From Salinivirgaceae bacterium (lineage in GTDB: Bacteria > Bacteroidota > Bacteroidia > Bacteroidales > SZUA-534), in contig JAFZWI010000002.1 in assembly GCA_017617355.1 (NCBI GenBank), forward strand, positions 19,640-83,639: a DNA stretch of 64,000 bases, written 5' to 3'. A model generated the notes under the pieces. It saw only the letters and a program-made list of their open reading frames with translations. It had not been told where the DNA came from and ran no database searches. A program made the translations under genes and the position numbers. Numbering within the stretch: the stretch's first letter is position 1; every line of letters starts with the position of its first letter. Shown piece after piece: positions 34,939 through 63,894 of this stretch.

Positions 34939-34961
34939 CACACTATTTAAACTATACAACT

Positions 34962-35090: not shown

Positions 35091-35094
35091 ATCT

Positions 35095-35206
35095 AAAGTG
35101 GCGCGGCTTCTTTTGTCAGTTAAAACGTTAATTGCGAATTGCTTTCTCGTTTTAAAAAGTTAATTAAAAATCATATTTCAAACCTTCACACGCCGCGCCA
35201 CTTTTT
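35095..35206 (+). promoter_or_regulatory. nested inverted repeat (structured RNA / terminator-like element) before the early operon
   Basis: Perfect 13-bp outer stem AAAGTGGCGCGGC (35095..35107) / GCCGCGCCACTTT (35192..35204), then TT. The inner stem is TTAAAACG (35120..35127) / CGTTTTAA (35148..35155). Confidence 0.5.
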
Positions 35207-35220
35207 AATCGCTTACAGCT

Positions 35221-35457
35221 ATGATTAAAGCTTACCAAACACACGCAATTTTTCCAACACGCGAACCCGACGCGATATTCGTTGGCGCGGCTATGGGTAA
35301 CTCATCAAAGAATGAAATCGGCTGCGGCGGTTTAATACTCGACAAGGCTACCTATCAATCTTTAAGGGAAAAGCTGGATAGTGCGTTTAACGCCTATATG
35401 GACGCTTTAGACCAAATTCTAAAAACACATAACACAACCACAAAAGAATCAATTTAA
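35221..35457 (+). CDS. hypothetical early protein
   Basis: 78-aa ORF, first in the plus-strand early array. Confidence 0.55.
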   Translation: MIKAYQTHAIFPTREPDAIFVGAAMGNSSKNEIGCGGLILDKATYQSLREKLDSAFNAYMDALDQILKTHNTTTKESI

Positions 35458-41553: not shown

Positions 41554-41585
41554 ATAACACATAACACATTAACACACACTTGACA

Positions 41586-42392
41586 ATGGAAAAGAAAGTT
41601 ATCATTGAACCGACAGCCTTCCAACAAACAGCTGTCAACACCAAGCCTGCCGCAACCAAGCAAAAGGCAGAAACAACATTCAGTATCGGGCAGATTATGG
41701 AGCGCGAACCGTCGGCCACGCGGAACGCACCAGCGCCAGTCAAGGCAAGTATTCGCAGAAAATTACTGGAAATAGGCTACGACGAGCCACACCTTTACGA
41801 CGCACTCTTAATCAAATACCGCAACATTATGGCGGAGCGATGGGGCGACACATTCACCATAAGCGCGAATGTGAGCCGGACAATCAATGTTGTGGCACGT
41901 TGGTTTACCAGCGAAGCGGCTATTAAGCCTAACTTGTATGTTGTCGGCGCAGTTGGCACTGGCAAGACAACACTTGCAAGGGCAATAGCAGGAACAATAG
42001 GCACAATCAGCGCGGCACAGTTGCAAACTCTGCGAATCAGCGGCTCTTACATTGCCGCCACACAGTTGCGCGAATACCACGCTGACGGACGGCTGGACGA
42101 GTTTAAATATCGCGACCTTATGGTGCTTGACGATATGGGCAGCGAGGAAATGGCAATAATCAAGGATTATGGCAACGACATCAACCTATTCGCCGACATC
42201 ATATTCACGCGCTACGACCGAGCCTTGCCCACAATCATAACCAGCAACTTGTCAATGCCCGACCTTGCCGCCCGATACGGCACAACCGAGGCTGGCCGCG
42301 ACCGCCTTGCCGACCGTCTGCGCGAAACGTGCTATCTGCTGGCGATGAATGAGGCTTTCCGCACCGAAAATGCAAAAGTAAAAATAGTATAA
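41586..42392 (+). CDS. DnaC/IstB-like AAA+ helicase loader
   Basis: Walker A VGAVGTGKTTLARAIAG, Walker B LMVLDDMGSE and sensor IITSNLS. Confidence 0.8.
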   Translation: MEKKVIIEPTAFQQTAVNTKPAATKQKAETTFSIGQIMEREPSATRNAPAPVKASIRRKLLEIGYDEPHLYDALLIKYRNIMAERWGDTFTISANVSRTINVVARWFTSEAAIKPNLYVVGAVGTGKTTLARAIAGTIGTISAAQLQTLRISGSYIAATQLREYHADGRLDEFKYRDLMVLDDMGSEEMAIIKDYGNDINLFADIIFTRYDRALPTIITSNLSMPDLAARYGTTEAGRDRLADRLRETCYLLAMNEAFRTENAKVKIV

Positions 42393-48988: not shown

Positions 48989-49116
48989 TCCCGAAAAGGC
49001 ACTTTAATTTAGGACAGAGCCGCCGTTAGGCCACGCGCCCAAGCCCGACGGCAAGCCGCAAGGCAAGGCAGACGGCGCACTTGATTATGCTGGTGTGTTC
49101 AGCCGTCCAGCAATAA

Positions 49117-49150
49117 CCGTCCGAAACGAACACGCAGGACGGTTTTTTTT
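49117..49150 (+). terminator. intrinsic terminator closing the early array
   Basis: Stem CCGTCC (49117..49122) / GGACGG (49137..49142), followed by TTTTTTTT. Confidence 0.7.
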
Positions 49151-49178
49151 ATTTTGTAGTGAACGTTCACTACAAAAT
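49151..49178. promoter_or_regulatory. perfect 28-bp palindrome (operator-like)
   Basis: ATTTTGTAGTGAAC|GTTCACTACAAAAT read directly. It abuts the terminator T-run. Confidence 0.6.
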
Positions 49179-49213
49179 CGCATATAAACGCAACTACCTA
49201 ATAATCAGCCAGT

Positions 49214-49266
49214 CCCCAAAATTCCCCAAATTTTCCCAAACCGTACCCCAAAATTCCCCAATTTGT
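49214..49266. repeat. CCCCAAAATT-type direct repeats upstream of the 49.5-kb operon
   Basis: CCCCAAAATTCCCCAAATTTTCCCAAA, then CCCCAAAATTCCCCAATTTG. GTAACGGTTAC and two copies of GGTTACA follow. Confidence 0.8.
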
Positions 49267-49503
49267 AACGGTTACAGCACTGGTTACACGCACGATTTTT
49301 TTATTCCAGTTTGTATCATTCCAAAAAACATTTACATTGTAACCGCGTAATGTTCTGAAAATCAGTTGTTTGTTGTTGTAATTTGTTGCGGTTTCCCGTA
49401 CTTTGTTGCGGTTTGTTGTAGCATAAAACACCACCGCCAATTTTCAGTTTTTACGCCCAGCGCGGCAAAATCCGCGTTTTGGAACGGATTTAAATGTTTT
49501 TTG

Positions 49504-51303
49504 ATGATGGAAAACGGACAATTAGGCGGCAACTACGATACTTTTTTCGACGAGAAAGACCCTCAATGGAATTTGACCGCCGATGATATAAAACTTATCG
49601 ACGCGCTGCAACAACAATACAATGAGGCTATCCCCAACAACGATTCGCAACGCAACCGCCGCAACGCGCAGTTAGCCTATTTCTATGTCAAATTTTTGAA
49701 TGGCCAGCCCGACGCGGTAACAAAAGCGTTTTTTTCAAGTATTCGCCGCCACGCCGGAAATGGGGAAAAGATAAAAATGTATATCGTTCCCGAATACGCG
49801 ACTTACGACCGCATTGCAGAGTATTTATATCACAACCCGATAACCAAGAACATTGTCCGCAAATATGTACCCGATTTAAAAGGGTTGCCATCGTCAATCA
49901 AAGCAATGTTTAAATTTTTGATTGAGCTGTATAAGCAGCGCAAAACCGCCGCAGCCGACCCAACCCAGCCAGCCGAAGCCGCCCCCGAAAAAACGACCCT
50001 CGATTTTGCGAAGCATTTGGCCAAGCTCTACGCCGACGGCCAAAAGCTCGATTTTGTGAAAGCAAAATCAATCAGCAAACAAGGCGGCTACAATTTCACC
50101 GACAACGACCTTATGCAAGCCTGCGAGTTGGGCGTGGTGCTGGCGGCGCGTTCCATTGCGCAAGACGGCGACGGCAGAATACAAGACCGTTTCCCCCGAC
50201 TTGTTGACCTTTACGCCCGACAAACAAGGATAACAACGAAAGACCAAATCGGCGAATCGTTGCAGCAATACTCAACACCCTGCCCGATAGCCTATTTGCT
50301 TGATATGTGGGTGCGCCAAACAATGATTGGCCAAACACGGCATTTCTACGAACCAACCGCCGGAAATGGTTTGCTCACAATCGGACTGCCACTCGACGCG
50401 ACCGAGGTTAACGAAATCGACCCACCGCGTTATAAGAACCTTTTGCAGCAGGGCTTTTGCCGAGTAACCAACTACGACGCGGCTGCTGGCAAGATAACCA
50501 CCGCCGACCCGAAGAATTGCCCGATTAGCGGCGTGGTTATGAATCCACCGTTTGCACCGCTTGAAAACCGCAAAGACTGGCTTGTGCGTAAAGGCGAGAT
50601 TGACGGACGCGGCGAATTGTCGTATGAGATAACACGCCTCGACCACAAGATAGCTATCCTCGCGCTTGAAACAATGGTAGCCAAAGGCCGTGCGGCAATC
50701 ATTGTTGGCGGCAAAATGGCCGCGAAATACGCCGAGTATAAAGATGTGTATTGGAAAAACGGCTCGATTTTCGGCGCGTGGCGCACGTTCATCAGCTATC
50801 TGCACCGCCAGTACAACATTGTCGATGTAATCTACATTAACGGCGACCTTTACGCTAAACAAGGCACAACATTCCCGATTGTGGTAATCTTGATTGACGG
50901 ACGCACCCGATGGAACAGTGAGCTTACCCACCAGTGGCACAAATACGATGCGGCAAAGGACGCGCAAATCAGCACTTTCAACGAGTTCTACTTGCGTATG
51001 CTCCAGCACCTTGAAATGGGCGAACCGAAAACCGACCCCGACCGAGAGAAACGGCTGGCAGAGGCAAAGAAAAAAGCCAGTTGGCTTCTGCACTATGTAA
51101 GTTTCAATATGCCGTGCAGATACGACAAGGGCGACAAGTTTTTGTTCAAATCGCCAGCCGTGCCAAAGGGCGAAGTGCTTGAGGTTGAATTTGGTTGGCA
51201 CGGCGAATCGGGCAATGGCGCTATTGTTTACCACTGCAAGACGAAAAAAGGCACATCAACCGCCTCGGAAGAAACATTGGACGCTTGCGAGAAATTGAAT
51301 TGA
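49504..51303 (+). CDS. N6-adenine DNA methyltransferase module with an N-terminal unknown domain and a C-terminal small beta domain
   Basis: The motif order QQYSTP (X), FYEPTAGNG (I), VVMNPPFAP (IV) is gamma-class. First ATG at 49504 (the track ORF starts at a non-ATG codon at 49366). The C-terminus carries REKRLAEAKKKASWLLHY plus an SH3-like tail. Confidence 0.8.
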   Translation: MMENGQLGGNYDTFFDEKDPQWNLTADDIKLIDALQQQYNEAIPNNDSQRNRRNAQLAYFYVKFLNGQPDAVTKAFFSSIRRHAGNGEKIKMYIVPEYATYDRIAEYLYHNPITKNIVRKYVPDLKGLPSSIKAMFKFLIELYKQRKTAAADPTQPAEAAPEKTTLDFAKHLAKLYADGQKLDFVKAKSISKQGGYNFTDNDLMQACELGVVLAARSIAQDGDGRIQDRFPRLVDLYARQTRITTKDQIGESLQQYSTPCPIAYLLDMWVRQTMIGQTRHFYEPTAGNGLLTIGLPLDATEVNEIDPPRYKNLLQQGFCRVTNYDAAAGKITTADPKNCPISGVVMNPPFAPLENRKDWLVRKGEIDGRGELSYEITRLDHKIAILALETMVAKGRAAIIVGGKMAAKYAEYKDVYWKNGSIFGAWRTFISYLHRQYNIVDVIYINGDLYAKQGTTFPIVVILIDGRTRWNSELTHQWHKYDAAKDAQISTFNEFYLRMLQHLEMGEPKTDPDREKRLAEAKKKASWLLHYVSFNMPCRYDKGDKFLFKSPAVPKGEVLEVEFGWHGESGNGAIVYHCKTKKGTSTASEETLDACEKLN

Positions 51304-51325
51304 CAACAATCTAAAAATCAACAAT

Positions 51326-53554
51326 ATGGACTTATTTGAAGAAAACAACAACGATTTAGGAGCTATCATCAACTACTCCAGCTATTTCAAAGAGAAAAAG
51401 CCGTGCTTTTCGTTTGAGAGCAACTACGACAACAAGCACATCAACAACCTTGCGCCCGACAGCAACATTCCCGACAGCTTGATTGAAACAATCAACAAGG
51501 GCATTACGTTGGAGCAACTGAACGAGGTTAGCCACTTGCCGGTGTGCCACTACAAAACGCAGATAACTATCCACGGCATTTGCCCCACGCTGAAATCAAA
51601 CAAGGTTTACGGATATTCGGCGCTGGTTATCAACAACAACAAATCGCTTGGTGTGCGCTGGTTGGCCATCGACCGCAAAAAGAAAAACCGCATTGCCGAT
51701 TACGTTGGCGAATACGGCTGGCGAACATTTGAGGATTCGCAGGTCTATTGCTATTCCAAAGAATTTGAATATGACAAAGACGAGAAACAAGAGGTTTACA
51801 ACAAGTTGGTTAACAAACTGAATAAGATAGACCGTTCACTGTTCTACGGCTACATTGATATTTTGGACTACGACTATTCGCGTAGCAGCTGGGTAATATC
51901 CAACTCAAAAAGCAACTTTGAGGTGGTTATTTATCTGCAAGGCATTTACGAGCAAAACATACAAGCGTTTTTGGAAAGCGTTTGCGACGATAGCTGGGCA
52001 AACATCGAGGCCAAATACGAAGAATTTAAGCAGCGTATGGAGCAACGCCGCGCCGAAGCCGAACAAGAGAAAAAGGAGCGCGAGAAACGCCGCCAAGAGG
52101 CCGACGCTGCCTACAAACAATGGTGCGCCGACAATCCGTTCCCCGAAAAGTTTGTGAAAATGGACTTTAGCGAGTTGCAGGCTGGCGATATTATCGGCTA
52201 CTACCGACAAATGTCCGAGGGTGGCATTAAAATCTACCTTGAACTGTTTTTGAACTGGAAACGGCTTTGCTACCGCAGCTACAATTACGAAAAAGGCGAA
52301 TACACAATCAAAAGCGGCCACGTTCTTGAACGCAAAGATTTGCCCGAAGAATTTTGGGTATGGCGGCGCGAAGCCGCAACGCCGTCGGCAACCGCCACAG
52401 CTTCGGCGCGGCCATCACACGGCGACGCTGTTGAGATTGTGGACTACGGCGACAACGAGGTGGCCGTTTTGGGCTACACCAAGCACAAATATTTGGAGTT
52501 GAAGAATTTGGGCGGTGGCCGCTGGAACAAATACATTAGAATCGACGGACGGCCAATGGCGCAGGGTTGGTGCTTTCCGCGCCACAAACGCGCCGAGCTT
52601 GAAAAAATGTTCGGCATTGAGGCCAACAGCCAACCGGCAGAGCCGCAACCGGCCAAAGAAGAACCGCAGCCCCAACCGGCAACCGATGAGCCGAAATTCA
52701 AAAACGGCGAGCGTGTTTGGTATTATGGCGACGGCGCAGACGGCAGGGCAAACGGCTGGCAAGTATCAATTCTTTTCTACCGTAACGGCAAGTATATGGT
52801 GCATTGGGAATCGCTACGCGGCGGCAAAGCACAATTCTACGCCGATGAGAGCGAATTGAGCCGAGAGCCGCGCAACCAAGACGAACCCGACCGCACAAAC
52901 CGCCTTAAAGCCGCAAAAGCAAAAGCACACGAACTCTATTTGTATGCCCAACACAACATTCCTGCGCCGAAAGAATCGGGCATTGACGGATTGGACGATG
53001 ATTTAATAGAAATGAAAAAGCGCGTTGCCAACTGGCTTTCCGAGGAAACTCTATCGCAAGCGAGAGGAAAATCGAAAGACGAAATATACAAGATATTCGA
53101 CAACACCCCACTACCAATAGCATACATACCCAAACGGTTTGCGGACTTGATTGACAGCGAATTAACCGACTTGTATGTTTATTCGGGAAAGGCTTATTTT
53201 GTTGACCACGCCGTAAACCATCACGGTAACATTTCCTCGGATAAATATTTATTGATTCAAGACATACTAAACGAACCCGATGAGATAAGGAAAACCCTTA
53301 TTGATGGCCGGGATTCATACGTGTTTACCAAAAGATTTACACGATACAATGCTGTTGTAATCACTATTGAGGTTACTGAAAACGGCAAGATGATATTACA
53401 TAAATCATTCTTTGACCAAAAGAAAAGGCCGTATGCGAATAAAGGCATACGGCTTTATAGCTTACCGTCGGGGGGCGGCGACCTTCCACACCTACAAGGG
53501 TGTTCCCCCATCATTCGTGCCAAAAGCACACGGCAGCAGCCTTCCTGCTCTTGA
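51326..53554 (+). CDS. multidomain protein; the C-terminal domain resembles phage PBECR/RelE-barnase-type nucleases
   Basis: 742 aa. The parts in order are an AT-rich N-domain, a charged coiled coil, a small domain (AVEIVDYGDNEVAVLGYTKHKYLELKNLGGGRWN...GWCF), an SH3-like module and the helix motif RLKAAKAKAHELYLYAQH. The C-terminus is YFVDHAVNHHGN...ILNEPDEI...YNAVVITIEV...MILHKSFF. Confidence 0.55.
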   Translation: MDLFEENNNDLGAIINYSSYFKEKKPCFSFESNYDNKHINNLAPDSNIPDSLIETINKGITLEQLNEVSHLPVCHYKTQITIHGICPTLKSNKVYGYSALVINNNKSLGVRWLAIDRKKKNRIADYVGEYGWRTFEDSQVYCYSKEFEYDKDEKQEVYNKLVNKLNKIDRSLFYGYIDILDYDYSRSSWVISNSKSNFEVVIYLQGIYEQNIQAFLESVCDDSWANIEAKYEEFKQRMEQRRAEAEQEKKEREKRRQEADAAYKQWCADNPFPEKFVKMDFSELQAGDIIGYYRQMSEGGIKIYLELFLNWKRLCYRSYNYEKGEYTIKSGHVLERKDLPEEFWVWRREAATPSATATASARPSHGDAVEIVDYGDNEVAVLGYTKHKYLELKNLGGGRWNKYIRIDGRPMAQGWCFPRHKRAELEKMFGIEANSQPAEPQPAKEEPQPQPATDEPKFKNGERVWYYGDGADGRANGWQVSILFYRNGKYMVHWESLRGGKAQFYADESELSREPRNQDEPDRTNRLKAAKAKAHELYLYAQHNIPAPKESGIDGLDDDLIEMKKRVANWLSEETLSQARGKSKDEIYKIFDNTPLPIAYIPKRFADLIDSELTDLYVYSGKAYFVDHAVNHHGNISSDKYLLIQDILNEPDEIRKTLIDGRDSYVFTKRFTRYNAVVITIEVTENGKMILHKSFFDQKKRPYANKGIRLYSLPSGGGDLPHLQGCSPIIRAKSTRQQPSCS

Positions 53555-53610
53555 CGGCATTGCAAACATAGCAAATAATTCAATATGAAATCATTAAATA
53601 TCAATAAAAA

Positions 53611-56600
53611 ATGAAACTAATTGAAATTCAAGAACAATTCTTTAGGTTGAAAAACCGCAACGGCGTGTTTTTCTGCACCGAGGCCGAAACCGACGCTTGC
53701 CTAAACGTTAAGGCGGTTCACTACATTCAAGCCGACAGCAAAATGCGCTTGCCGCAAGACTGGCAAAACGCACGGACAATGACCCTGCGCGGCGACGATT
53801 TGCAAAACATTGTGCCGATGGGCGGCGGTTTGGGTATGGCCTACCAGCCAGCCTCAAAAATCCGCAAACTCGACACACAAACGCCCGACAGTATGGGCAA
53901 CGACATTCACAGCGCCCTTGCCAAGCTGACAAAGGCCGTGGGCGGCGATGTTACCGATTTTGTTTGTGAGCGTCTGCAATGGAGCAGAGAGGAAATTGAG
54001 GAACGATTGTTTGCCGAGCAAGTTGACGCGGTGGCGCTCATCATCTACAACTTTGAGGCGCGAGGCCAAGCTATGATTGTCGGCGACCAAACCGGCATTG
54101 GCAAAGGCCGTGTTGCTTCCAGCATTATACGCTACGCCATTGTTCACAACCTTATTCCAGTCTATTGCACCGAGAACGCCGGACTTTTCAGCGACAACTA
54201 CCGCGACTTGTGCGATATTGGCTGCGCCGACCTAAACCCGTTCATCATCAACAGCAGCACAAGCGGAACAACCAACGCCTGCATAACCACATTGGACGAA
54301 AACGATGAAAACGTTGTTGTTCACCGGCCAATCACTAACAAAAAGGCTAAAGAGGCTATTTTTAGGTCGGGCAAACTGCCAGCCGGTTACGACTACGTGC
54401 TGACAACCTACTCCCAGCTCAAAAACGCCTACAAAAAGACCAAAGACGGCACGGAAGAAGGCAGCGACATCAGCAAATACTACTTTTTGCTCGACCTTGC
54501 GCCTAACGCCGTGTTCATTTTCGACGAGAGCCACAATATTAGCGGCTCGAAAGCTGTGTCGGAAGAATGGTGGAATCCCGACGCGCCTATGACGATGGGC
54601 GGCTCAAACCAGTTCTATTGCTTCAATGAGCTTTGCAAAAAATCGAAATACGCCGTGTTCCTTTCGGCCACATTCGCCAAACGCCCCGAAAACCTTGTGG
54701 TTTACGCCGGACGCACTTGTATTATCGAGGCCGGACTGAAAGATGTAGAGCTGATTCAAGCCATTAGCGACGGCGGCGAGGCTTTGCAGGAAATCATATC
54801 AAGCGATATTGTTGGCGAGGGGCAGATGATTCGCCGCGAGAGTATCTACAAGAATATCAAGGTCAACTACATATATCTTGACAAAACCGGCGAAAAAGAG
54901 TTCGGCACACCCGACTTGGAAAAGCAGCACCGCAGTATGAGCGACTACGTTACCGACATTATCAACGAGATTAACAAGTTTGAGCAAGACTATGTGCAGC
55001 CGATTATCGACAATATGAACAGTAACGATTGGGGCGACCGCACAAGAAAAACCAGCGAAAAAACCGGCGCAAAACACACGCCGTTGTTCTCAAAGCTGTT
55101 TAACATTGTCAACCAGTTGCTTTTCTCAATCAAGGCCGAGGCGGTTGCCGACCACGCCATACGCCGTTTGAACGAGGGCAAAAAGGTTGTTATCGGCCTT
55201 TCATCGACAATGGAAGCGTTTGTAAAAACGCTGCTTGACGAGGACGATGATGATGATAAGGACGGACTGAAAGGATTGTTGGGCATTGACTACGAAAAAG
55301 GCGAGATTTCGTGCGATTTCGCGCTTGTTTTGGATAAGGCGCTCGACAACACACTGAAATACACCACCGACGGCGAGGGCGGCTACCACGTTAAAGACGC
55401 TATTGATGTCAGCGAATTGTCGCCCGACGGCCAAGATGAGTATTTGCGGCTGAAAAACCGCATTGCCGCCGCTTCGTCGGGCATTAGCATTTCGCCCATT
55501 GATATAATCGTGCAGAAGATTGAGGCCGCTGTCAACCCCGAAACCGGCGAACACTGGCGCGTTACCGAGGTAACTGGCCGCAAGCACTATATCCGCTTTA
55601 CTAACAAACAAGGCACACGCGGCGTTATTGAGCCGCGCAAGAAACTGACGCGCAACATTGCTTTCTCTCAATTCCAAAACAATCAAAGCGATGTGCTGAT
55701 TATCAACGCCAGCGGCGCAACCGGCGCGTCGGCTCACGCCACCACCAAAAACACCAATTTGAGGCCGGAGCAAGTGAAACCGCGAGTGATGATTATTGCA
55801 CAAACCGAACTTGATGTGAACAAAGAGGTGCAGAAGCGAGGCCGCATTAACCGCACCGGCCAAATCAAGACTTTGCCGCCGTCGTATGACTACCTTATTT
55901 CGGCAATTCCGGCAGAGAAGCGACTGATGATGATGTTGCAGAAGAAACTCAAATCGCTGGACGCTAACTCCACCTCAAACCAAAAACAATCGACCACGGT
56001 TATTGATGTGCCGGACTTTTTCAACAAATACGGCAACCGTATCGCTTACGACTATTTGATTGAAAACCCCTTAATCAACGCCAAACTGAACGACGCGGCT
56101 AAAGCGCCGGAAAAGGAAGATGGCAAGGCTGATGTTCCGGGCGATTTTCTAAAGAAAGTGTCGGGCTACGTGCCGTTGCTCACCTGCGAGGAACAAGAGG
56201 ACTTTTACAACACCATTCTCGACAACTACTTGAAATACATTGACAACCTAAAGAAAAAAGGCGAATACGACTTGGAAGTGGAAGCAATGGACTTGGACGC
56301 GGAGCTGATTGGTGAGCTGAAGCCGCTTGTTGGCGCTTCGGCTGGCGAGAGCAAATTCGCCGACGCTGCCTATCAAGGCACTTACCGCTGCAAGGTTCTG
56401 CGTAAGCCCTACTCACAAGGCGAGGTTACAGCAATGTTGCGAAACTACTGCGGCAACTCCGACGGCAAGACAATAGCCAAAACGCTGGCCGACGATTTCC
56501 GCAAATACTACACCGATGAGCTTGAAGCCGACCGACTGGCAATGAAAGAGGCCGGACTGAAAGCCATTGAGGACGCACGTAAATCGATAGCCAAAAAAGG

Positions 56601-57717
56601 CGGCAGCGAAGCTGACAAAAACGAGGCCGAGGCTCTTGTAAAGGAAAACTACCGCCAAATGTGGGCTGACGCAGAGGCCAAAATCGAGCGAAAGCGAAGC
56701 AAGGCGCGGTTTATTGAGTTCTTCTATGCAGGACGCGCTTGCATTGTCGATGGCGACACCAACACAAGGGCGATTTGTTTGGGTGCGGAGATTGGCAACA
56801 AGGCCAAAAACAAATACGCTCCATCAAATATTTCAATATCGTTTGCCGTGGCAAGCAGCGTTAAATCGCTGGAGTACAACATTGCCGACAAAGACACACG
56901 CGAGCTGGAAGCCATTATGGGCTTGTCGGCTGGCATTAGCGGCGGCTACTACGACACCACCGACTACGGCCAAAAGTATCTTGAAAACTGGCCGCAATAC
57001 TGCAAAGAGGCAACCAGCGACACCGAGCTTCGGGTAATCATTGTGGGCAACATTCTGCGCGGCTACAAGAGCGCACCCGAACACTCAAAACTCATTTCGT
57101 TCACCACTCACGACGGCAACGTGCTGAAAGGTCTGCTTGTGCCGAAACAAGCCTTTGACGACGATAAAGGCAACAGCACAACAACCAAGCTGCTTATGAC
57201 AAAATACTCCGTGCTGAAATTCAAACCGGTTATGGAGCGAATGTTCGGCAATTACGGTGAGAAGCAAACAGTCAACCTCACACGCGGTATGAAGCTGGAT
57301 ATTGAGGGCGGCTCATTCACTCTGCGCTGTACGGTGCAAGCCACATTCAAAAAGCTGGAAAAACTGCAAGACTGGCTCGACATCAGCCCCGACGGACGCG
57401 GTTTTGTTTCAAAGAGCGACAACTGGCAAATCCGTTTCTACGACCGCGACCGATTCGACGCTGTTTGTGAATTGCTTGAAAAATACCAATTCCAAGTTGA
57501 ATTGCAGCCTATTGAGGCCGAGCGCTATTTCGGAAAGCAGACGCACACGCTCAAACAAGGCAACTGGAAACCGCTGAAAACCGACCCAGCCAACATTCCG
57601 GCCACCGGCGAGAACGGCAGCGCCCAATACAACAACGGCAAACGGACATTGCAGCTTGCCAAAGCAAAGGAAAAGGCGCGACAACTGTTGAAATACGCAC
57701 AGCGATACACACGATAA
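53611..57717 (+). CDS. strawberry-notch-type SF2 helicase (DarB helicase-like)
   Basis: 1368 aa with GDQTGIGKGR (motif I, Sno-type), IFDESHNISG (DExH), INASGATGASAHA and RGRINRTGQ (motif VI). The C-terminus ends with KRTLQLAKAKEKARQLLKYAQRY. Confidence 0.8.
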   Translation: MKLIEIQEQFFRLKNRNGVFFCTEAETDACLNVKAVHYIQADSKMRLPQDWQNARTMTLRGDDLQNIVPMGGGLGMAYQPASKIRKLDTQTPDSMGNDIHSALAKLTKAVGGDVTDFVCERLQWSREEIEERLFAEQVDAVALIIYNFEARGQAMIVGDQTGIGKGRVASSIIRYAIVHNLIPVYCTENAGLFSDNYRDLCDIGCADLNPFIINSSTSGTTNACITTLDENDENVVVHRPITNKKAKEAIFRSGKLPAGYDYVLTTYSQLKNAYKKTKDGTEEGSDISKYYFLLDLAPNAVFIFDESHNISGSKAVSEEWWNPDAPMTMGGSNQFYCFNELCKKSKYAVFLSATFAKRPENLVVYAGRTCIIEAGLKDVELIQAISDGGEALQEIISSDIVGEGQMIRRESIYKNIKVNYIYLDKTGEKEFGTPDLEKQHRSMSDYVTDIINEINKFEQDYVQPIIDNMNSNDWGDRTRKTSEKTGAKHTPLFSKLFNIVNQLLFSIKAEAVADHAIRRLNEGKKVVIGLSSTMEAFVKTLLDEDDDDDKDGLKGLLGIDYEKGEISCDFALVLDKALDNTLKYTTDGEGGYHVKDAIDVSELSPDGQDEYLRLKNRIAAASSGISISPIDIIVQKIEAAVNPETGEHWRVTEVTGRKHYIRFTNKQGTRGVIEPRKKLTRNIAFSQFQNNQSDVLIINASGATGASAHATTKNTNLRPEQVKPRVMIIAQTELDVNKEVQKRGRINRTGQIKTLPPSYDYLISAIPAEKRLMMMLQKKLKSLDANSTSNQKQSTTVIDVPDFFNKYGNRIAYDYLIENPLINAKLNDAAKAPEKEDGKADVPGDFLKKVSGYVPLLTCEEQEDFYNTILDNYLKYIDNLKKKGEYDLEVEAMDLDAELIGELKPLVGASAGESKFADAAYQGTYRCKVLRKPYSQGEVTAMLRNYCGNSDGKTIAKTLADDFRKYYTDELEADRLAMKEAGLKAIEDARKSIAKKGGSEADKNEAEALVKENYRQMWADAEAKIERKRSKARFIEFFYAGRACIVDGDTNTRAICLGAEIGNKAKNKYAPSNISISFAVASSVKSLEYNIADKDTRELEAIMGLSAGISGGYYDTTDYGQKYLENWPQYCKEATSDTELRVIIVGNILRGYKSAPEHSKLISFTTHDGNVLKGLLVPKQAFDDDKGNSTTTKLLMTKYSVLKFKPVMERMFGNYGEKQTVNLTRGMKLDIEGGSFTLRCTVQATFKKLEKLQDWLDISPDGRGFVSKSDNWQIRFYDRDRFDAVCELLEKYQFQVELQPIEAERYFGKQTHTLKQGNWKPLKTDPANIPATGENGSAQYNNGKRTLQLAKAKEKARQLLKYAQRYTR

Positions 57718-57739
57718 TCGAACCTAAATACTTAATACA

Positions 57740-59602
57740 ATGATTACAAAACAAAATCTAAAAAGCGAATTTGAAAACTACAAACAGTTTTTAAAGAACG
57801 ATGAAATGCGCCAAAAGGTGCAGGAAGCTATCGAGATAAGCGAGTTCTACGGCGAGGACACCGACATAACACGCGCCGTTGACGCTATTTGCGAAATGGT
57901 GAACCGCTTTATCGACAAGGCCGACAAGTTTAAGCCCACAACGGCGAAAACACCGGCTGCAAAAAAGACCGAAAAGCGCAAGACGCTGGCCGACTATAAG
58001 TTTGCAAACAAATTTATGTGCGAGAGGCAGAAGCCGGTTGTGCGCGAGGGCTGGAGCGAATTGGAAAGCACCATTGCGCGGCTCGACAAGCAGCTGGCCG
58101 AAATGCCGAAGCTCTACAAACAAGAAAAGTTGGGCAAAAAGGCTATTGTGTACGCTCACTATTTCTTTGGCTCGACCGACATTTTTGTTACCGAGGCCGA
58201 CGATGAGCTGATGTTCGGTTACACAATTTTGAACGGCGACTGTCAAAGCAGCGAGTACGGCAACCAGTCGATTGAGGAAATAACCAACAGCAAGTATTGT
58301 GAGCTTGATTTCTATTGGGATAACAAGACACTGGAGCAAGCCCTATACGACTGCCACCCCGACTATTTCCCCGAACCTAAAACCGATGAACCGACCGAAA
58401 CCGACGAGGCCAAAGCGCGGCGCATACGTATTGCCGAGGCCGAGGCCGAAGCCGCCCTTGCCCTGCTGGAGCTTGTCAACCTTTCGGGCGTTGATGTGGC
58501 CGAAAGACCGCGAACAACCGACCTATTCGGCAATGAGCTGGAGCGCGACCGCTGGCAGAAACGCTGGGACGCACGGCGCAAAAAATACATTTACACCGAC
58601 AACGACGGCGAAGAATGGTACAAGAACGAGCGCGGCCACTATTGCCTGCTTAATGGCAACGATAGCGAGGATATACGCGACCACGCCGTAAACATTTTGC
58701 GCAACGAATTTCCGCAAGCGAAATACCGCGACGAGATTGAAGAATTTGTCGAAACAAGAGATGAGGACGAATTAAATGAGGACGATATAATTGACGATTT
58801 TATCGGCTGGCTTGGCGACGATATTGTTTATTTCCTTTGGGATAGATTTCCCGACTATCAAGACGAAGCCGACGAGTTCATTAACTCCGGCCATTGGGAC
58901 GATAACGTGAGCCGTTACGAAAACTTAAAAGCCTTTAAAAAGTGGCTCGATGACGAAATAGGCGAAACCGTAGGACACGGAAAGTTGTTTGATATTGAGG
59001 AACTGACCGACACCACTGGCCGCGTTACCCCTCTTTATAATATCGACAATAAAAATGATTATTTCAACCGCGAGGACTTGTCGTTTGTTATGAGGGAGCT
59101 GGGAGATTATCTGCCCAAACACAGCAAACACCTTGAGCGCGTTTGGATAGACGAAAACGACACCTACCGATTTGAGTTTGGCGAGGGTGCTTATACGGAA
59201 AACGCACCTGCCGACAAAAAGTGGTATATAAACGCCTTTAGAGCTATACAAGAGCGATTCCCAAGCGTATCGGACAGCTTTATTGAGGAATTTGTAGCCG
59301 ACGGCTGGGATAACACCGCCGAACTCTACGACAATTTGAAAGCCTTTAAAGAGTGGCTTGATGATAAAACCGGCAACACCGACGGCGGCGAGCTGTTTGA
59401 AGTTGGCTGGGAAGATTACGGCGCACAAGAGCGTGGCGTGTTAAGGCCGCTTTACACTATTAACGACCAATGGGGTGAGGACTACTCATTTGCAGAGCAA
59501 TGGCTGCGCGACACACTGGCCGTTGACAACCTTGCAATCGACCGTATGTGGATAAATGAAACCGACGGAACTTACGGATTCTTAACAAAATATGCGAAAT
59601 AA
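57740..59602 (+). CDS. DUF2958-like N-domain protein with a triplicated acidic module
   Basis: AIVYAHYFFGSTDIFVTEADDELMFGYTILNG...EYGNQSIEEI is DUF2958-like. It also has the linker RIRIAEAEAEAALALLEL and three copies of FP...EF[VI]...W[DG]...Y[ED]NLKAFK.WLDD. Confidence 0.6.
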   Translation: MITKQNLKSEFENYKQFLKNDEMRQKVQEAIEISEFYGEDTDITRAVDAICEMVNRFIDKADKFKPTTAKTPAAKKTEKRKTLADYKFANKFMCERQKPVVREGWSELESTIARLDKQLAEMPKLYKQEKLGKKAIVYAHYFFGSTDIFVTEADDELMFGYTILNGDCQSSEYGNQSIEEITNSKYCELDFYWDNKTLEQALYDCHPDYFPEPKTDEPTETDEAKARRIRIAEAEAEAALALLELVNLSGVDVAERPRTTDLFGNELERDRWQKRWDARRKKYIYTDNDGEEWYKNERGHYCLLNGNDSEDIRDHAVNILRNEFPQAKYRDEIEEFVETRDEDELNEDDIIDDFIGWLGDDIVYFLWDRFPDYQDEADEFINSGHWDDNVSRYENLKAFKKWLDDEIGETVGHGKLFDIEELTDTTGRVTPLYNIDNKNDYFNREDLSFVMRELGDYLPKHSKHLERVWIDENDTYRFEFGEGAYTENAPADKKWYINAFRAIQERFPSVSDSFIEEFVADGWDNTAELYDNLKAFKEWLDDKTGNTDGGELFEVGWEDYGAQERGVLRPLYTINDQWGEDYSFAEQWLRDTLAVDNLAIDRMWINETDGTYGFLTKYAK

Positions 59603-59633
59603 CTTATTTACAAACCTTTAAATTAAATTTAAA

Positions 59634-60725
59634 ATGAAACTACAAGGAAAAACATTGGCAGAGGACATCAAGAAAGTGCAACTGCCAGCCGAACTGCAAA
59701 ACTTTTACAACGACCACATTGCAAAGAATGTGGACTTGTACGGCGAAGCGCCGACCGTTACCAAACTGATTGACGCTTGGCTTGAAAAGGCCAACGCCTA
59801 TCTTGAAGCAAACGCCCCGAAAGCCGAGCCGAAGAAAGAAGAACCAAAGGCCGAGCCAAAAAAGGACACCGAACACGTAAAGGTGGTAGCTCCCAAAAAG
59901 CCGCAACCAAAGGCCGAGCCTAAAAAAGAAGAGCCGAAAGCAGAGCCAAAGGCAGAGCCGAAAGCAGAGCCTAAAAAGGCCGGAAAAAAATCGGGTAAGA
60001 AAGTGCCTGCCGCTTTATTCAAGACCGGCGCGTGGGTGATTGACAACAACAGCGAAAAGGCTGGCGTTATCAGCGAGAAACTGCGCTACGACGATGAGCG
60101 CGGCTGCTGGCTCTATCATATCGAATATGTCGGCTCAAAGGAGCAATCGCTTGTAGCCGAGTGCGACCTTGCACGAACACGCGCACCGCGCACCGTAGCC
60201 ACCACTGGCGAACTTGTGCCGGAGCTGTCGGCTGAAATCAAGATTATCAAGCGTTACATCGCATTGGACGGCAAAAAGTTGAGCAAGTTGGGCAACGAGC
60301 CGCGCCTTGCGCTTGCAGCCTTGCAGAAGATGATTATCAACAAGCAGATTCGCAAGACCAGCAAGTATGCCAAGTATATCAACGATATGCAGGACAGCCT
60401 CATTAAGCTTGTCAACAGCCGTGCAAAGGACGCTGAAATAACAATCAACCACATCGACGAACTCCGCAAGATTGTCGCCAAGCAGAACATCAGCGAAATC
60501 TCAAACATATCGCGAGCTTTCGTCGCCCTTATCGGCAAAGACAACAAGCAGAAAGAGGCCAAATCGCTCTACGAAAAGTTGTTAAAGTACAATTTCAAAG
60601 GCGACGATTCAGCCGAGGCCGCAACGATGAAAAAGGCGCTGAAAGCCTACATCGACGGCGAGAACGAAACCGTTTACGCCACAGCGCGTGAGCTGCAAGG
60701 TATTTTCGGCCTTGCCGGTATTTAG
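59634..60725 (+). CDS. K/E/P-rich protein with an SH3-like module
   Basis: 363 aa with PKAEPKKEEPKAEPKK repeats. FKTGAWVIDNNSEKAGVISEKLRYDDERGCWLYHIEYVG; the C-terminus is ARELQGIFGLAGI. Confidence 0.6.
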   Translation: MKLQGKTLAEDIKKVQLPAELQNFYNDHIAKNVDLYGEAPTVTKLIDAWLEKANAYLEANAPKAEPKKEEPKAEPKKDTEHVKVVAPKKPQPKAEPKKEEPKAEPKAEPKAEPKKAGKKSGKKVPAALFKTGAWVIDNNSEKAGVISEKLRYDDERGCWLYHIEYVGSKEQSLVAECDLARTRAPRTVATTGELVPELSAEIKIIKRYIALDGKKLSKLGNEPRLALAALQKMIINKQIRKTSKYAKYINDMQDSLIKLVNSRAKDAEITINHIDELRKIVAKQNISEISNISRAFVALIGKDNKQKEAKSLYEKLLKYNFKGDDSAEAATMKKALKAYIDGENETVYATARELQGIFGLAGI

Positions 60726-60781
60726 TTAATAACCGAGTGCAGGGGGCGTTTCGGCGCTCTCTGCATTTTTTAAAACAACGA

Positions 60782-62173
60782 ATGATGAACAACAAACAAA
60801 CGGCCTTGTTTGGCATTGACGACCGTCCGCAACCGAAATACAAGGTCGGGCAAATGGTTCGCGTATCGTCGTGGGGGCAATACGATTTTGCTTACATAAA
60901 GTCGGTTAAATGGTGGAATTTGTTTGATACCTACAAATACGAACTGACAGCCTTTCACGGCGGCGATTACCACGAAAAGAAAGAATACGACATTAGGCCA
61001 ATTGGTAGTTTTGATTTGAAATACGATGAAGAAAAGGCATATACAATCAACCCGCCCGAATGTGAGGTGGGCGACAAAATTTTCGCAAAGAAAGTTAATC
61101 GGACATACACGGTAAGAGACATTAACCTTTATGGCGTTGACCACAAATACAAGTACAACAAACGCGGACTACGTGTTGTGTCAAAATCAACAGCGTCCTA
61201 CATATACCGTTTGGAAGAAACTGATTCGCCGGTATGGAGTGGTGAATTTAAAGTGCTTCCCAAAGAATCTCCCGACAGCGACAAATCCAAACGCATACGC
61301 ATTGCCGAGGCCGAAGCAGAGGCCGCGCTTGCGCTGCTGGAGTTAGTGAAGATTGGTAATGAGCCGAAGCGCGGTGATGTTTACACGCTGCCCAAAAAGT
61401 TTGAAAAACCCGACGCTTGGTTAAGCGCAAGCGACAAGGATAGATACGATTTTTATTCAGTCGCCGATGTTGTCAGCAACGGCAATATCATTGTTATTGA
61501 TGAGCAAACATATAAAAGCGAATGGTATTCTGCTGACGAATTTAAACGCGCTGGCTTCAAATTTCACCACCACCAACCCGATTACGGAAAGGTTGGCGGC
61601 ATAAGCGGAATCGAAAGAAAAAATGTCGAAATTCACCGCCGGAGCAAACACGGACAAATGGGCGAGATTGACAACTTTGAAGAACGGCACGCGCTGTATC
61701 TTAAACTGCTGAACGACAGCAACTATTATGATGTGATGTTCAAACCCGAAAACGGCGGTTTGAAAGCTGTGCATTATGGGCATAACTTTGACAAAGAAAA
61801 AGGTCATTACGAAAAAGAAGTGATGAGATATGCTTATCAAAATGGTTATTGCGTCATATTAGAAAATGAGCAAGGAAAAAATATCGGCGAGAACTACACG
61901 GAAGGGCTTTGGAATGAAGATGTATTTGAGTTAGCTACTTGCGAAAACGCAAATAGTAACAACAATAACATTGTCAATGGTCTAAAGCATTGCGCGTCAA
62001 AAGACGATACAAAAACAGCAATTTTATATTTCTATAAAGGCGTTTTTATCGAAGCCGATGTTGATAGAGCAATAAGGCGTTATAATGGGCTAAAAAACAC
62101 GCTAACCTATTATAAGGCGTTTACTGCCATTTATATAGTTGATAAGTGGGGTAATATTTATAAGATGAGATAA
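60782..62173 (+). CDS. two SH3-like modules + AEAEA linker + AT-rich C-terminal domain of unknown function (effector candidate)
   Basis: Start at MMNNKQTALFG. It has YKVGQMVRVSSWGQYDFAYIKSV and CEVGDKIFAKKVNRTYTVRDI, then RIRIAEAEAEAALALLEL. The C-terminal region of about 270 aa has no recognised motif. Confidence 0.6.
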   Translation: MMNNKQTALFGIDDRPQPKYKVGQMVRVSSWGQYDFAYIKSVKWWNLFDTYKYELTAFHGGDYHEKKEYDIRPIGSFDLKYDEEKAYTINPPECEVGDKIFAKKVNRTYTVRDINLYGVDHKYKYNKRGLRVVSKSTASYIYRLEETDSPVWSGEFKVLPKESPDSDKSKRIRIAEAEAEAALALLELVKIGNEPKRGDVYTLPKKFEKPDAWLSASDKDRYDFYSVADVVSNGNIIVIDEQTYKSEWYSADEFKRAGFKFHHHQPDYGKVGGISGIERKNVEIHRRSKHGQMGEIDNFEERHALYLKLLNDSNYYDVMFKPENGGLKAVHYGHNFDKEKGHYEKEVMRYAYQNGYCVILENEQGKNIGENYTEGLWNEDVFELATCENANSNNNNIVNGLKHCASKDDTKTAILYFYKGVFIEADVDRAIRRYNGLKNTLTYYKAFTAIYIVDKWGNIYKMR

Positions 62174-62225
62174 AAAAAGGTATGGGAGGCTCCACCGAAA
62201 GTGGTACACCCCCCACAACGCAAAT

Positions 62226-63095
62226 ATGAAAATAATATTTGAAACCGCAAAACAAAATCGGAAAAAAATGATACTCGACAAATTCAACCCCAAATTCAAC
62301 CCGACACCGGCGCAGAAACGCGCATATCGGGCGGAAATGAACAAATACATTCGCACCGCGCACCCAATTCAGCCAATCAACGGCTTGGACGGTTTTGAGC
62401 CGCGCCACAACGAGCCAGCCGAGCCGCAGCCAGTCAAGCGCAAGTTGCAGAAAAGCGACCAAATGAATAGTATGGACTTTATGCAGGAAAAGTTTGAAAT
62501 CATACCGCTTACTGGCCGGTGGAAGAAGCTAATCGGCTATCCTCAATCGGACAGCAAGATTATGTTTTATGGCAAGCCCGGAAACGGGAAAAGCACGCTG
62601 GCGCTCCAGTTTGCCGGTTACACCTCGCGGACGCTGGGCAGCAAAACGCTCTACGTTACCAGTGAGGAACCGTTCTCGTACACGTTGCAAGAGAAATTAA
62701 AGAGGCTGGGCGTAGCTAACCCTAATTTGACAATTACCGGCGAATTTCCTGCCGATGTCAGCAAATACAAGTATATCTTCATTGATTCGGTTAATAATTG
62801 CGGAATGAAACCCGAAGATGTAAGGAATTTGCCGCCCGACCATTTTTACGTGTATGTTTTTCAAACCACCAAAAGCGGTGCGTTCCGTGGCTCACAAGAG
62901 TATTTGCACGATGTTGACGCGGAAATAAAAGTCGAGGCAATGAGAGCCGTGGCTGGCAAGAATCGTTTTGGCGGCTACGAGGAAATTGAGGTGTTGCCGC
63001 AGCGCAACGAGCCGTCAGCCGCGAAGCCGAAGCCAAAATCGAAACGCGCCAAAGGCCGCGAACTACTGGCGCAGACGCTGGCAGGGTTGAAATAA
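62226..63095 (+). CDS. RecA/KaiC-superfamily ATPase
   Basis: Walker A YGKPGNGKSTLALQFAG and Walker B-like YIFIDSVN. The N-terminal extension is basic and contains PINGLDGFEP. Confidence 0.65.
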   Translation: MKIIFETAKQNRKKMILDKFNPKFNPTPAQKRAYRAEMNKYIRTAHPIQPINGLDGFEPRHNEPAEPQPVKRKLQKSDQMNSMDFMQEKFEIIPLTGRWKKLIGYPQSDSKIMFYGKPGNGKSTLALQFAGYTSRTLGSKTLYVTSEEPFSYTLQEKLKRLGVANPNLTITGEFPADVSKYKYIFIDSVNNCGMKPEDVRNLPPDHFYVYVFQTTKSGAFRGSQEYLHDVDAEIKVEAMRAVAGKNRFGGYEEIEVLPQRNEPSAAKPKPKSKRAKGRELLAQTLAGLK

Positions 63096-63150
63096 GAAGC
63101 GGCAATTAAATTTTTATTACCTTTGCCGCTGAATTTTAAAACACTACACT

Positions 63151-63315
63151 ATGATAACCGCAGATTTTTTTAGCGACACGCCTGCAATATCGGGCAAGGA
63201 CGCAGAAAGGTTTTTAAAGGCAATGGAAGCCCCCAAGCCGCTACCGAAAGAGCAACTGGCGGAAATGCGTCGTGCGTACCAAAATTTTTTATCGAGAAGA
63301 GTTGTAAAAAAGTGA
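63151..63315 (+). CDS. small ORF (54 aa), antitoxin candidate for the second GNAT
   Basis: Not in the track. Hand-translated: MITADFFSDTPAISGKDAERFLKAMEAPKPLPKEQLAEMRRAYQNFLSRRVVKK. It ends 3 nt before the GNAT ATG and resembles the small ORF at 15646..15801. Confidence 0.55.
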   Translation: MITADFFSDTPAISGKDAERFLKAMEAPKPLPKEQLAEMRRAYQNFLSRRVVKK

Positions 63316-63318: not shown

Positions 63319-63894
63319 ATGGTAGGGTCTATTGACGATTTCGATTGGCGTTGGGATATTTTGAATGAGAATATTTCAGTTGATGATTTTGTGTGTGAAA
63401 AACACCACGAATTTGAAGATTTCCTCAAAAATGCGGCTCTACTATACCAAGAAGAACGATTGGCTATTACGTATGTGATTCTTGTTGGCAACAAACTGAT
63501 AGCGTACTACTCGCTTGCAACCGACAAGGTTGTGATGAATGACAGCGATAAAAATCTTTGGAAGCGGCTATCGAAGAAAATACCTTTTGACAAAAGGCGC
63601 AGAGGGTACCCTGCATTAAAGCTATGCCAATTAGCGGTTGATGATAATTATGCACATAATGGTTTTGGAAAGCAAATAATAACACAAGTTATGCTTTCCG
63701 CTTCGGACTTTAAAGTAGGTTGTCGATTTATAACTGTTGACGCATTACCCGAAGCCGAAGATTTTTATAAGAAAATGGGCTTTACGCGGCTATCCGGCAC
63801 ACCTAATCCGAAAAACGACACTATCCCAATGTATTTTGATTTGGGCAGAATTGAGGCGCAGCCCGAAAACCAAAACGAGGAAACCAATCAATGA
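63319..63894 (+). CDS. GNAT-family acetyltransferase, TacT/AtaT-like toxin candidate (paralogue of 15134..15655)
   Basis: 191 aa with YPALKLCQLAVDDNYAHNGFGKQII...CRFITVDALPEAEDFYKKMGFTRL...DTIPMYFDL. Confidence 0.7.
   Translation: MVGSIDDFDWRWDILNENISVDDFVCEKHHEFEDFLKNAALLYQEERLAITYVILVGNKLIAYYSLATDKVVMNDSDKNLWKRLSKKIPFDKRRRGYPALKLCQLAVDDNYAHNGFGKQIITQVMLSASDFKVGCRFITVDALPEAEDFYKKMGFTRLSGTPNPKNDTIPMYFDLGRIEAQPENQNEETNQ

Follow-up and report, generated by a model that had tools for sequence, protein, structure and literature searches.

A seven-gene prophage operon from a Salinivirgaceae bacterium as a probable split version of a polyvalent-protein conflict module

An operon of seven open reading frames (ORFs), all on the plus strand, occupies positions 49504-63095 of a 64,000-nucleotide stretch from a Salinivirgaceae bacterium (contig JAFZWI010000002.1, assembly GCA_017617355.1, positions 19,640 to 83,639 of the forward strand). 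This whole stretch is referred to as the window. In all likelihood the operon is a split (multi-gene) version of a conflict module of the polyvalent-protein type. Its carrier is a temperate phage, integrated at a tRNA-Lys gene in this member of the Bacteroidales. The account that we favour adds to the split module a DarB-like protection, nuclease effectors, loading into the capsid and ejection with the DNA, and to this account as a whole we assign a probability of about 0.45. Its parts are graded separately: we consider a counter-defence or takeover role rather likely, and we propose packaging of the proteins into the virion tentatively, at slightly less than even odds.

A sequence-only reading of this DNA had described seven same-strand ORFs that follow a terminator, a 28-bp palindrome and a repeat array, and all of these are present (Table 1). 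Its ORF coordinates were retained, but the intergenic gaps, given as 11-56 nt, had to be revised to 22-94 nt (22, 56, 22, 31, 59 and 94 nt) upon correction of the start codons of ORF6 and ORF7. The ATG codons at 60785 and 62268 are favoured by the gene calls, which are from three independent contigs, and by the N-termini of homologues. As identical gene boundaries are found in the three independent contigs and in divergent relatives, the split of the operon is not an artefact of assembly or frameshift. Every motif that had been quoted was found in the translations of ORF1 and ORF3, and the description of ORF5 as a K/E/P-rich protein is reflected in its KAEPKK repeats.

ORF1 consists of an N-terminal helical region, a gamma-class N6-adenine methylase domain, a linker helix and a small C-terminal beta module. 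The protein is 37% identical to the methylase segment of gp3 from Bacteroides phage BS-TP4, its family profile (seven sequences) matches the HsdM subunit of EcoR124 with an E-value of 2e-5, and it carries the motifs LQQYSTP (TP motif), EPTAGNG and NPPF, a set of the TP/FxGxG-like/NPPF type. On these grounds it is assigned as a gamma N6-adenine methylase of the EcoKI/TaqI type, in agreement with the methyltransferase that had been recognized from sequence. There is a further match to phrog_14770, a profile of 3427 positions. Pfam gave no match for ORF1, and the isolated methylase core likewise returned nothing useful at E<=5.

ORF3 is a SWI2/SNF2 ATPase of the strawberry-notch (Sno) type, as had been proposed. 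Both Pfam domains score above their gathering cut-offs (AAA_34 with 58.2 bits, cut-off 27; Helicase_C_4 with 66.6 bits, cut-off 30.5), and the motifs GDQTGIGKGR, DESH (the DExH box) and RGRINRTGQ are present. The protein shares 30% identity with the Sno helicase of BS-TP4 gp3. A scan of IMG/VR did not reveal a relative of ORF3, and a megablast comparison of the operon with 50,697 phage records gave no match. The methylase and the Sno ATPase are encoded by separate genes with ORF2 located between them.

ORF2 is composed of an N-terminal region (ORF2N, residues 1-465), a P/E-rich linker, a beta module, a linker helix (519-543) and a PBECR3-like RNase domain. The nuclease-like tail that had been noted on this 742-aa protein is partly substantiated, as it matches PBECR3 (PF18812) with an E-value of 3.7e-6, but the score of 27.3 bits is below the Pfam cut-off of 30 bits. 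The PBECR3 match is also weak for the orthologue at locus L006. ORF2N is conserved but has no detectable relative of known fold: its family profile found nothing in the PDB, tblastn found nothing among phages, and a Pfam search of the sub-domain at E<=5 returned nothing useful.

The second effector is found on ORF6, which is built from beta modules, a linker helix, a middle domain and an AT-rich C-terminal domain with a GC content of 36.9%, compared to about 50% in the core genes. For the AlphaFold2 (AF2) model of the C-terminal domain (pLDDT 84), Foldseek detected a single significant neighbour in the PDB, which is the CdiA-CT tRNase of Burkholderia pseudomallei 1026b (4g6v_A, E-value 1.6e-5, probability 1.0). 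The CdiA-CT toxin of Bp1026b is a member of the PD-(D/E)xK family (PMC9086364). In BFVD, the neighbours of the domain are proteins resembling toxins of contact-dependent inhibition (CDI), tRNA nucleases, and MuF or minor-capsid proteins. The domain had been described as AT-rich and unknown; the former is correct while the latter is not, as it is CdiA-CT-like and of a known MuF toxin type.

A full HMMER search showed that the toxin family of ORF6 comprises 373 clusters in which the domain is nearly always C-terminal. Phage_Mu_F is present in 25 of the 56 long members and Portal_Mu in four; other long members carry PT-HINT, and one matches CdiA_C. In a Mu-like phage, a toxin gene of the ORF6 type is found directly after Portal_Mu. 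All family-invariant residues (H346, H349, E359, E378, E398, H418 and K422) are retained in ORF6, so that the C-terminal domain is probably an active nuclease. A mapping of the CdiA-CT residues E187, D214, D223 and K242 onto ORF6 by spacing was attempted and dropped because the family-invariant residues do not fit this spacing. Pfam did not match ORF6, neither as a whole nor with its N-terminal segment, and hence no Phage_Mu_F domain was found. There is no ORF of the size of an immunity gene after ORF6; the next gene codes for the RadA-like ATPase here and at loci L006 and L018.

This ATPase, ORF7, represents the core of a RecA-fold ATPase of the RadA/Sms type. The profile of its family matches the RadA structures 5lkm and 8rxc with an E-value of 6e-16, a match that covers only RadA residues 39-262, and the sequence contains the Walker A motif GKPGNGKST and the RadA-specific motif KNRFG. 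The KaiC-family Pfam model ATPase matches with 30 bits, and NCBIfam reports TIGR00416 (sms, E-value 2.5e-8) along with P-loop matches of the KaiC type. The earlier assignment as a RecA/KaiC-like ATPase is thus well supported. CxxC pairs were not seen in the sequence, and ORF7 has neither a C4 zinc finger nor a Lon-like C-terminal domain.

ORF4 is very acidic (pI 4.5, net charge -58). It consists of an N-terminal helical module, an inserted domain of the mobile-element type (residues 75-215), a linker helix (222-248), a small domain with the pattern WDA..YTD.DG..WYKN, and a tandem acidic domain. Its N-terminus resembles that of ORF5 (E-value 3e-4), and its helix resembles the helix of ORF6 (E-value 3e-7). 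The insert recurs within plasmid proteins of 836 to 2904 aa that are annotated as JAB, ATP-binding or DEAD/DEAH helicase proteins, and its only library match is phrog_5203, a family of unknown function. ORF4 had been called DUF2958-like (PF11171); this could not be reproduced, as neither ORF4 nor residues 75-215 gave a Pfam match even at E<=5. With ORF4 as the query, low-complexity words dominated a word-index search, which yielded no more than 7 proteins. The tandem acidic domain was also considered as a DNA mimic similar to Ocr or ArdA. This was rejected, since the AF2 model is confident and its best Foldseek match in the PDB has an E-value of 0.57, which leaves only the charge argument.

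ORF5 consists of an N-terminal module, the K/E/P-rich repeats, a beta module and a C-terminal helical region (ORF5C, residues 195-363). Its only NCBIfam match, far below the cut-off, is to PRK14950 (DNA polymerase III gamma/tau), and ORF1-4 and ORF6 were without any NCBIfam match. When ORF1, ORF2, ORF4 and ORF6 were compared as single sequences with PDB sequences, no credible match was obtained, and a Pfam search with ten isolated sub-domains at E<=5 returned nothing useful.

Five of the seven operon proteins have in common an amphipathic helix of the type RLRLAKAKAKA..LEL. We searched 710 six-frame ORFs (from the window, five related loci and BS-TP4 gp3) with a hidden Markov model (HMM) of this helix, and all matches with E<0.01 were operon proteins. 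Nine of the matching proteins are outside the set from which the model was built. In six proteins the helix is located within the last ~30 residues: ORF3, where it is found at the extreme C-terminus (residues 1341-1365), the Sno proteins of L006 and L008, the 927-aa protein of L008, and the 476-aa and 511-aa proteins of L006. Gene boundaries thus follow directly after the helix, which would fit fission at linkers as well as a functional tag. The operon differs in this clade-specific tag from BS-TP4 gp3, where the HMM did not detect a copy. Common linker and beta modules had been proposed for the operon proteins. The linker is real and specific according to the HMM, but the beta modules lack statistical support: the proposed copies have only a K-x-G-D/E-x-V start in common, and an HMM built from outside copies was marginal, and this for ORF2 alone (i-E 0.003), so that common SH3-like beta modules were discarded.

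Related loci were identified via ORF3 homologues of 44-75% identity, and they contain the same modules in other covalent combinations. At L008, a 927-aa protein consists of ORF2N and the methylase, and a 682-aa protein combines the N-terminal module of ORF4/5 with ORF5C and the ORF7 ATPase. ORF5C and the ATPase are also joined in a 607-aa protein at L007, and a 1314-aa protein at L009 is a fusion of MutS_I and ORF2N. A further protein (P0283) contains an N-terminal module of the ORF4/ORF5 type, a K/P-rich stretch, an ORF5C-like domain and an ATPase of the ORF7 type, as read from the sequence and from a match to AAA_24. The 1555-aa Bacteroidota proteins that are annotated as "predicted RNA methylase" appear to be methylase-Sno fusions. 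The extreme is gp3 of Bacteroides phage BS-TP4 (PQ571277), with 5391 aa, in which ddrB-ParB, InPase, methylase, Sno and LPD38 are fused; its gene is located directly upstream of the portal gene. From these combinations a conserved core can be delineated, which consists of ORF2N, methylase, Sno, ORF5C and the RadA-like ATPase.

Gene order is retained at L006 and L018, where Sno is followed by ORF4-like and ORF5-like proteins, then by variable effectors (ART-PolyVal, LPD3) and finally by the toxin and the ATPase. Of this set, pPP10 of Persicobacter psychrovividus (L002, NZ_AP025302.1) has a minimal version with methylase, Sno, an ORF5C-like protein and the ATPase, with homologues of the minus-strand genes from the window upstream of the core and an amidase downstream. 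It may be mentioned that pPP10 is a 53-kb circular "plasmid" with ParA/ParB and Rep genes that looks like a phage-plasmid related to the prophage described here. At L016, tail-fibre genes are followed on one strand by a MuF_C protein and then by a Sno-Kinase-PolyVal protein, and holin and endolysin genes follow directly after the operon at L007 and L008. Altogether, LPD3, LPD11, ART-PolyVal, Kinase-PolyVal, MutS_I, RadC and MuF_C are found on homologues or in orthologous operons. The effectors that accompany the core are the PBECR3-like tail of ORF2 and the CdiA-CT-like nuclease of ORF6 in our operon, and ART-PolyVal, Kinase-PolyVal and MutS_I in the relatives. The slot before the ATPase gene is occupied by interchangeable effectors.

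Iyer et al. (2017) have described dyads of methylase and SWI2/SNF2 proteins, including Sno-type versions and others that are linked by neighbourhood only, as well as PBECR domains, an SMS/RadA domain that is specific to polyvalent proteins of Bacteroidetes, and small adjacent ORFs that carry polyvalent domains (PMC5512222). The CdiA-2 Bp1026b toxin type is among the MuF toxins of Jamet et al. (2017) (PMC5576092), and Bxa and Apk2 are further examples of MuF polymorphic toxins from temperate phages (PMC11699363). Because the modules are listed in the two 2017 studies, the kind of system is already known. The "undescribed composition" of the sequence-only reading is therefore an overstatement with respect to the Sno-methylase, PBECR and RadA/Sms modules, while the split form is indeed new. 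New features are a complete split of the toolkit that retains a conserved core of five parts, a helix tag specific to the clade, a toxin of the MuF type that occurs apart from MuF, and two parts without known fold, the acidic ORF4 and the ORF2N domain.

The operon resembles polyvalent proteins in its repertoire (EcoKI/TaqI-type methylase, Sno SWI2/SNF2, PBECR, SMS/RadA), in being phage-borne, and in the LPD, ART, kinase, MutS_I and RadC modules of its relatives. The phage or mobile-element setting is evident from the tRNA-Lys gene followed by an integrase, from tail-fibre-like genes and from phage relatives with holin and endolysin. That a polyvalent toolkit is dispersed here over separate genes had already been proposed, and the proposal is strengthened by the matching domain set, by the fused counterpart in BS-TP4 and by fission and fusion among the relatives. 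Polyvalent proteins have 2-15 effector domains in one polypeptide, and the methylase is fused to the SF2 helicase (PMC5512222). In contrast, the toolkit is spread here over seven genes, with methylase and helicase parted by another gene. An effector is joined to other modules in ORF2 and ORF6 only, neither an MPTase nor another processing peptidase was detected in the operon, and one slot holds a CdiA-CT-like toxin which normally occurs on MuF proteins.

The operon resembles the Dar system of phage P1 in its N6-adenine methylase and its SF2 ATPase, which belong to the same broad clades as those of Dar, and in a presumed protection of phage DNA from type I restriction. DarB is fused into one protein and requires DarA, Hdf and DdrA/B for its packaging. 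In our operon, the methylase and the helicase are unfused, the helicase is of the Sno type, and Pfam gave no Dar-specific domain, such as DarA or ddrB-ParB, for any of the seven ORFs. Dar has no counterpart of the RadA-like ATPase or of the nuclease effectors. In this respect the earlier reading was right; of its two "unknown" effector domains, however, one turned out to be the CdiA-CT-like toxin. The similarity to MuF toxins is confined to the C-terminal domain of ORF6, the family of which is mostly located C-terminal to Phage_Mu_F or Portal_Mu and the fold of which matches the CdiA-CT tRNase of Bp1026b. ORF6 differs from MuF toxins in having beta modules and the operon helix tag in place of a MuF domain, in the lack of a small immunity ORF after it, and in being part of an effector operon rather than of a head-morphogenesis block. 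ORF7 has the RecA-fold ATPase with Walker A and KNRFG in common with bacterial RadA/Sms but represents the core only, without zinc finger and Lon domain, and it is fused to ORF5C in relatives.

According to the favoured account, the proteins would be made under a phage-specific control that is not immediate-early, and they would most likely enter the capsid and leave it together with the DNA; the common helix would serve as an assembly or loading tag. The Sno translocase would move the methylase along the phage DNA, which would become methylated and escape restriction, a DarB-like step. The RadA-like ATPase, together with ORF5C, may handle ends or recombination intermediates of the incoming genome. 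The two nucleases would cut host RNAs (tRNA or others), and this would shut down the host or disarm RNA-dependent defences. For the very acidic ORF4, a role as decoy or adaptor is a guess. Packaging, which the sequence-only reading had proposed along with co-injection, and late expression are suggested indirectly by the tail, lysis, portal and MuF_C contexts of the relatives, by the occurrence of the ORF6 family on MuF and portal proteins, by the lack of an immunity gene, and by a terminator that is not followed by a host-type -7 element.

This last point concerns the region upstream of ORF1, in which the terminator-like hairpin ends the block of early genes. No TAnnTTT(G) -7 element as is typical for Bacteroidetes occurs anywhere in 48989-49510 (520 bp upstream of ORF1). 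The 28-bp palindrome, a candidate operator or activator site, is unique within the window, and the number expected from shuffled sequences is 0. We looked for further copies of it in the window as a sign of co-regulation, and none were found; nor was a conserved operator found that is common to the upstream regions of related operons. For the direct repeat CCCCAAAATTCCCCAA, there are 8 matches throughout the window at up to 3 mismatches, compared to 0.83 expected.

ORF3 is 100% identical to a protein from a Salinivirgaceae metagenome-assembled genome, which is encoded on a 185-kb scaffold. The junction between host and prophage is close to the left end of the window (Table 1). For the minus-strand block of tail-fibre-like genes, the only matches are to tail-fibre or collagen-like proteins, CBM_5_12, SH3_3 and transglutaminase-like domains, and an ORF of 1158 aa within it (27877-31353) is devoid of any match. 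In this phage lineage, the virion module has essentially no annotation. The two promoters of the putative lysogeny switch region are the sole consensus Bacteroidetes promoters near phage genes in the window. Two CCC(G/A)AAAAAACCCCAA repeats are located within the DUF6291 gene (39009-39069) and might be origin iterons. A repeat of the tRNA-Lys 3′ end that could represent attR was not found up to the window-equivalent position 67.7 kb. As head genes were not recognized either, the prophage must have a size of at least about 65 kb, with the head module unplaced.

A number of observations weigh against the favoured account. Genes for capsid, portal and terminase were not recognized in the window by PHROGs, Pfam or tblastn, so that proximity of the operon to head genes cannot be judged. 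Pfam did not detect a MuF, portal, DarA or prohead-protease-related (MPTase) domain in any of the seven ORFs. The likeness of ORF6 to CdiA-CT is at the level of the fold, and the PBECR3 match of ORF2 is, as mentioned, below the cut-off. The operon is co-directional with the early and replication genes and located directly downstream of them, and it could be a delayed-early unit. Stand-alone relatives of ORF7 are early genes beside MuA/MuB in Mu-like phages of Bacteroidota, and ORF7-like ATPases are encoded early in Hankyphage and in Winogradskyella phage Peternella. Finally, a methylase that is made late could protect progeny DNA without being packaged.

Several of these points would be accommodated if the same toolkit were not packaged. 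The operon would then be a delayed-early or middle unit, in which the methylase-Sno pair modifies replicating and progeny DNA in the manner of phage Dam or Mom and in which nucleases and ATPase act inside the infected cell. The position of the operon behind the early block, the lack of a detected capsid-targeting domain in the seven ORFs and the early ATPases of the two phages are consistent with this, and so is L006, where the methylase is encoded on the opposite strand and outside of the operon. We nevertheless consider it rather unlikely. Proteins that are made only after entry would come too late to protect the genome that enters first, the toxins of the ORF6 family occur predominantly in fusion with MuF or portal proteins, the module is found beside tail, lysis or portal genes in relatives, and ORF1 is preceded by a terminator and not by a host-type promoter.

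A more far-reaching version of packaging can also be envisaged, in which, within this clade of Bacteroidales phages, a kit of non-covalently associated parts has taken the place of the giant polyvalent protein. The core and the effectors would be joined via the helix or would dock on a receptor on the capsid or portal. The helix would then be a new type of cargo-loading tag that replaces MuF fusion or covalent linkage, and the slot before the ATPase gene would be a cassette for AT-rich toxins that have been acquired horizontally. We consider this speculative and put it forward with little confidence.

The operon might alternatively serve the host of the prophage, by defence or superinfection exclusion. 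The methylase would mark self, Sno would scan DNA, and nucleases and ATPase would be abortive-infection effectors that protect the lysogen. A methylase, an SF2 ATPase and a nuclease do reflect the general logic of type I/III restriction-modification, BREX and DISARM, toxin-type nucleases are present, and the operon is located within a prophage, towards its right-hand part. PADLOC, however, did not detect a defence system in the operon, with a P-loop level similarity of ORF7 to mad8 (E-value 0.006) as its sole match. Homologues of the domains typically occur on the side of the invader, in polyvalent proteins and MuF toxins, and the fused version is located beside the portal gene in phage BS-TP4. 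The methylase is not accompanied by a specificity subunit or a restriction endonuclease, and a host-type promoter from which the operon could be expressed in the lysogen is absent. A defence function is thus improbable. An ordinary replication or recombination module, with the helicase and the RadA-like ATPase as replisome or recombinase and the methylase as Dam-like housekeeping enzyme, is very improbable: ORF7 has weak PHROG matches to primase/helicase, Sak4 and DnaA-like families, its profile matches RadA and ORF3 is an SF2 ATPase, but the phage has a separate replication module (38.7-42.4 kb, DUF6291 and a DnaC/IstB-like loader), Sno-type SWI2/SNF2 proteins are translocases and not replicative helicases (Iyer et al. 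2017, PMC5512222), and two toxin-type nucleases as well as swappable ART and kinase effectors fit poorly.

Downstream of the operon, a 54-aa ORF (63151-63315, plus strand) and a GNAT acetyltransferase (63319-63894, plus strand; Acetyltransf_10 with an E-value of 6e-10, phrog_1758 with 2e-35) are possible accessory genes. At L018 (14554-15272), a GNAT gene and a 55-aa ORF also adjoin the related operon, there on the opposite strand. This pair could be an eighth, optional member of the operon or immunity-like. At L003, minus-strand genes that are convergent with the operon code for proteins of 128, 161, 98, 730 and >780 aa (20299-24107, window-equivalent 63.9-67.7 kb), and convergent neighbours are repeated at L018 (161, 101 and 694 aa). 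For the 730-aa protein, a weak dynamin-like match was the only one obtained, and PADLOC gave none. Long antisense ORFs overlap the operon (49688-63105, minus strand), e.g. at 50272-51234 (320 aa) and 55201-55863 (220 aa). They "match" antisense ORFs of the relatives because of the conservation of the sense strand only, and most likely they are not genes.

Table 1. Features of the operon, its upstream region and the surrounding prophage. Positions refer to the window.
Feature	Position	Strand	Remarks
ORF1	49504-51303	+	599 aa; gene callers start at 49507
ORF2	51326-53554	+	742 aa
ORF2, PBECR3-like RNase domain	53132-53425	+	residues 603-700
ORF3	53611-57717	+	1368 aa
ORF4	57740-59602	+	620 aa
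ORF4, tandem acidic domain	58667-59599	+	tandem repeat, E-value 9e-17
ORF5	59634-60725	+	363 aa
ORF6	60785-62173	+	462 aa from ATG 60785; 478 aa if GTG 60737
ORF6, C-terminal toxin domain	61643-62170	+	CdiA-CT(Bp1026b)-like PD-(D/E)xK
ORF7	62268-63095	+	275 aa from ATG 62268; 289 aa if start 62226
Intrinsic-terminator-like hairpin	49101-49152	+	followed by U8; -15.2 kcal/mol, z -2.5
Perfect 28-bp palindrome	49151-49178		halves ATTTTGTAGTGAAC and GTTCACTACAAAAT; 100% complementary, no spacer
Direct repeats CCCCAAAATTCCCCAA	49214-49264	+	three copies
TTTGTTGCGGTT-type repeats	49380-49413	+	repeat arrays together span 49214-49413
purA	210-1493	-	host side of host/prophage junction
tRNA-Lys	2536-2609		consensus Bacteroidetes promoter at 2481-2511
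Tyrosine integrase	3041-4267		after tRNA-Lys
27-kb block, about 25 genes	4783-32293	-	tail-fibre-like proteins
Likely lysogeny switch region	32300-35400		divergent consensus promoters at 32886 (+) and 34276 (-)
Four-helix membrane-like protein	33650-34321	-	weak tetraspanin match
Block of small genes		+	between switch region and operon terminator; holds replication module
DUF6291 initiator-like protein	38754-39737		phage replication module
IstB/DnaC-like ATPase	41580-42392		phage replication module

Polyvalent proteins are known almost exclusively from comparative genomics, and their size hampers their study. The natural split described here makes the methylase, the Sno translocase, the RadA-like ATPase and both toxin nucleases accessible through single genes. 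Such handles bear on the protection of incoming DNA by a methylase-translocase pair, on the role of the RadA module that is specific to Bacteroidetes, and on the capsid route, if any, of effectors without MuF. The operon also extends the CdiA-CT-like toxin family beyond its usual MuF carrier, and its common helix tag, together with its variable effector slot, hints at a general principle by which phages exchange such effectors.

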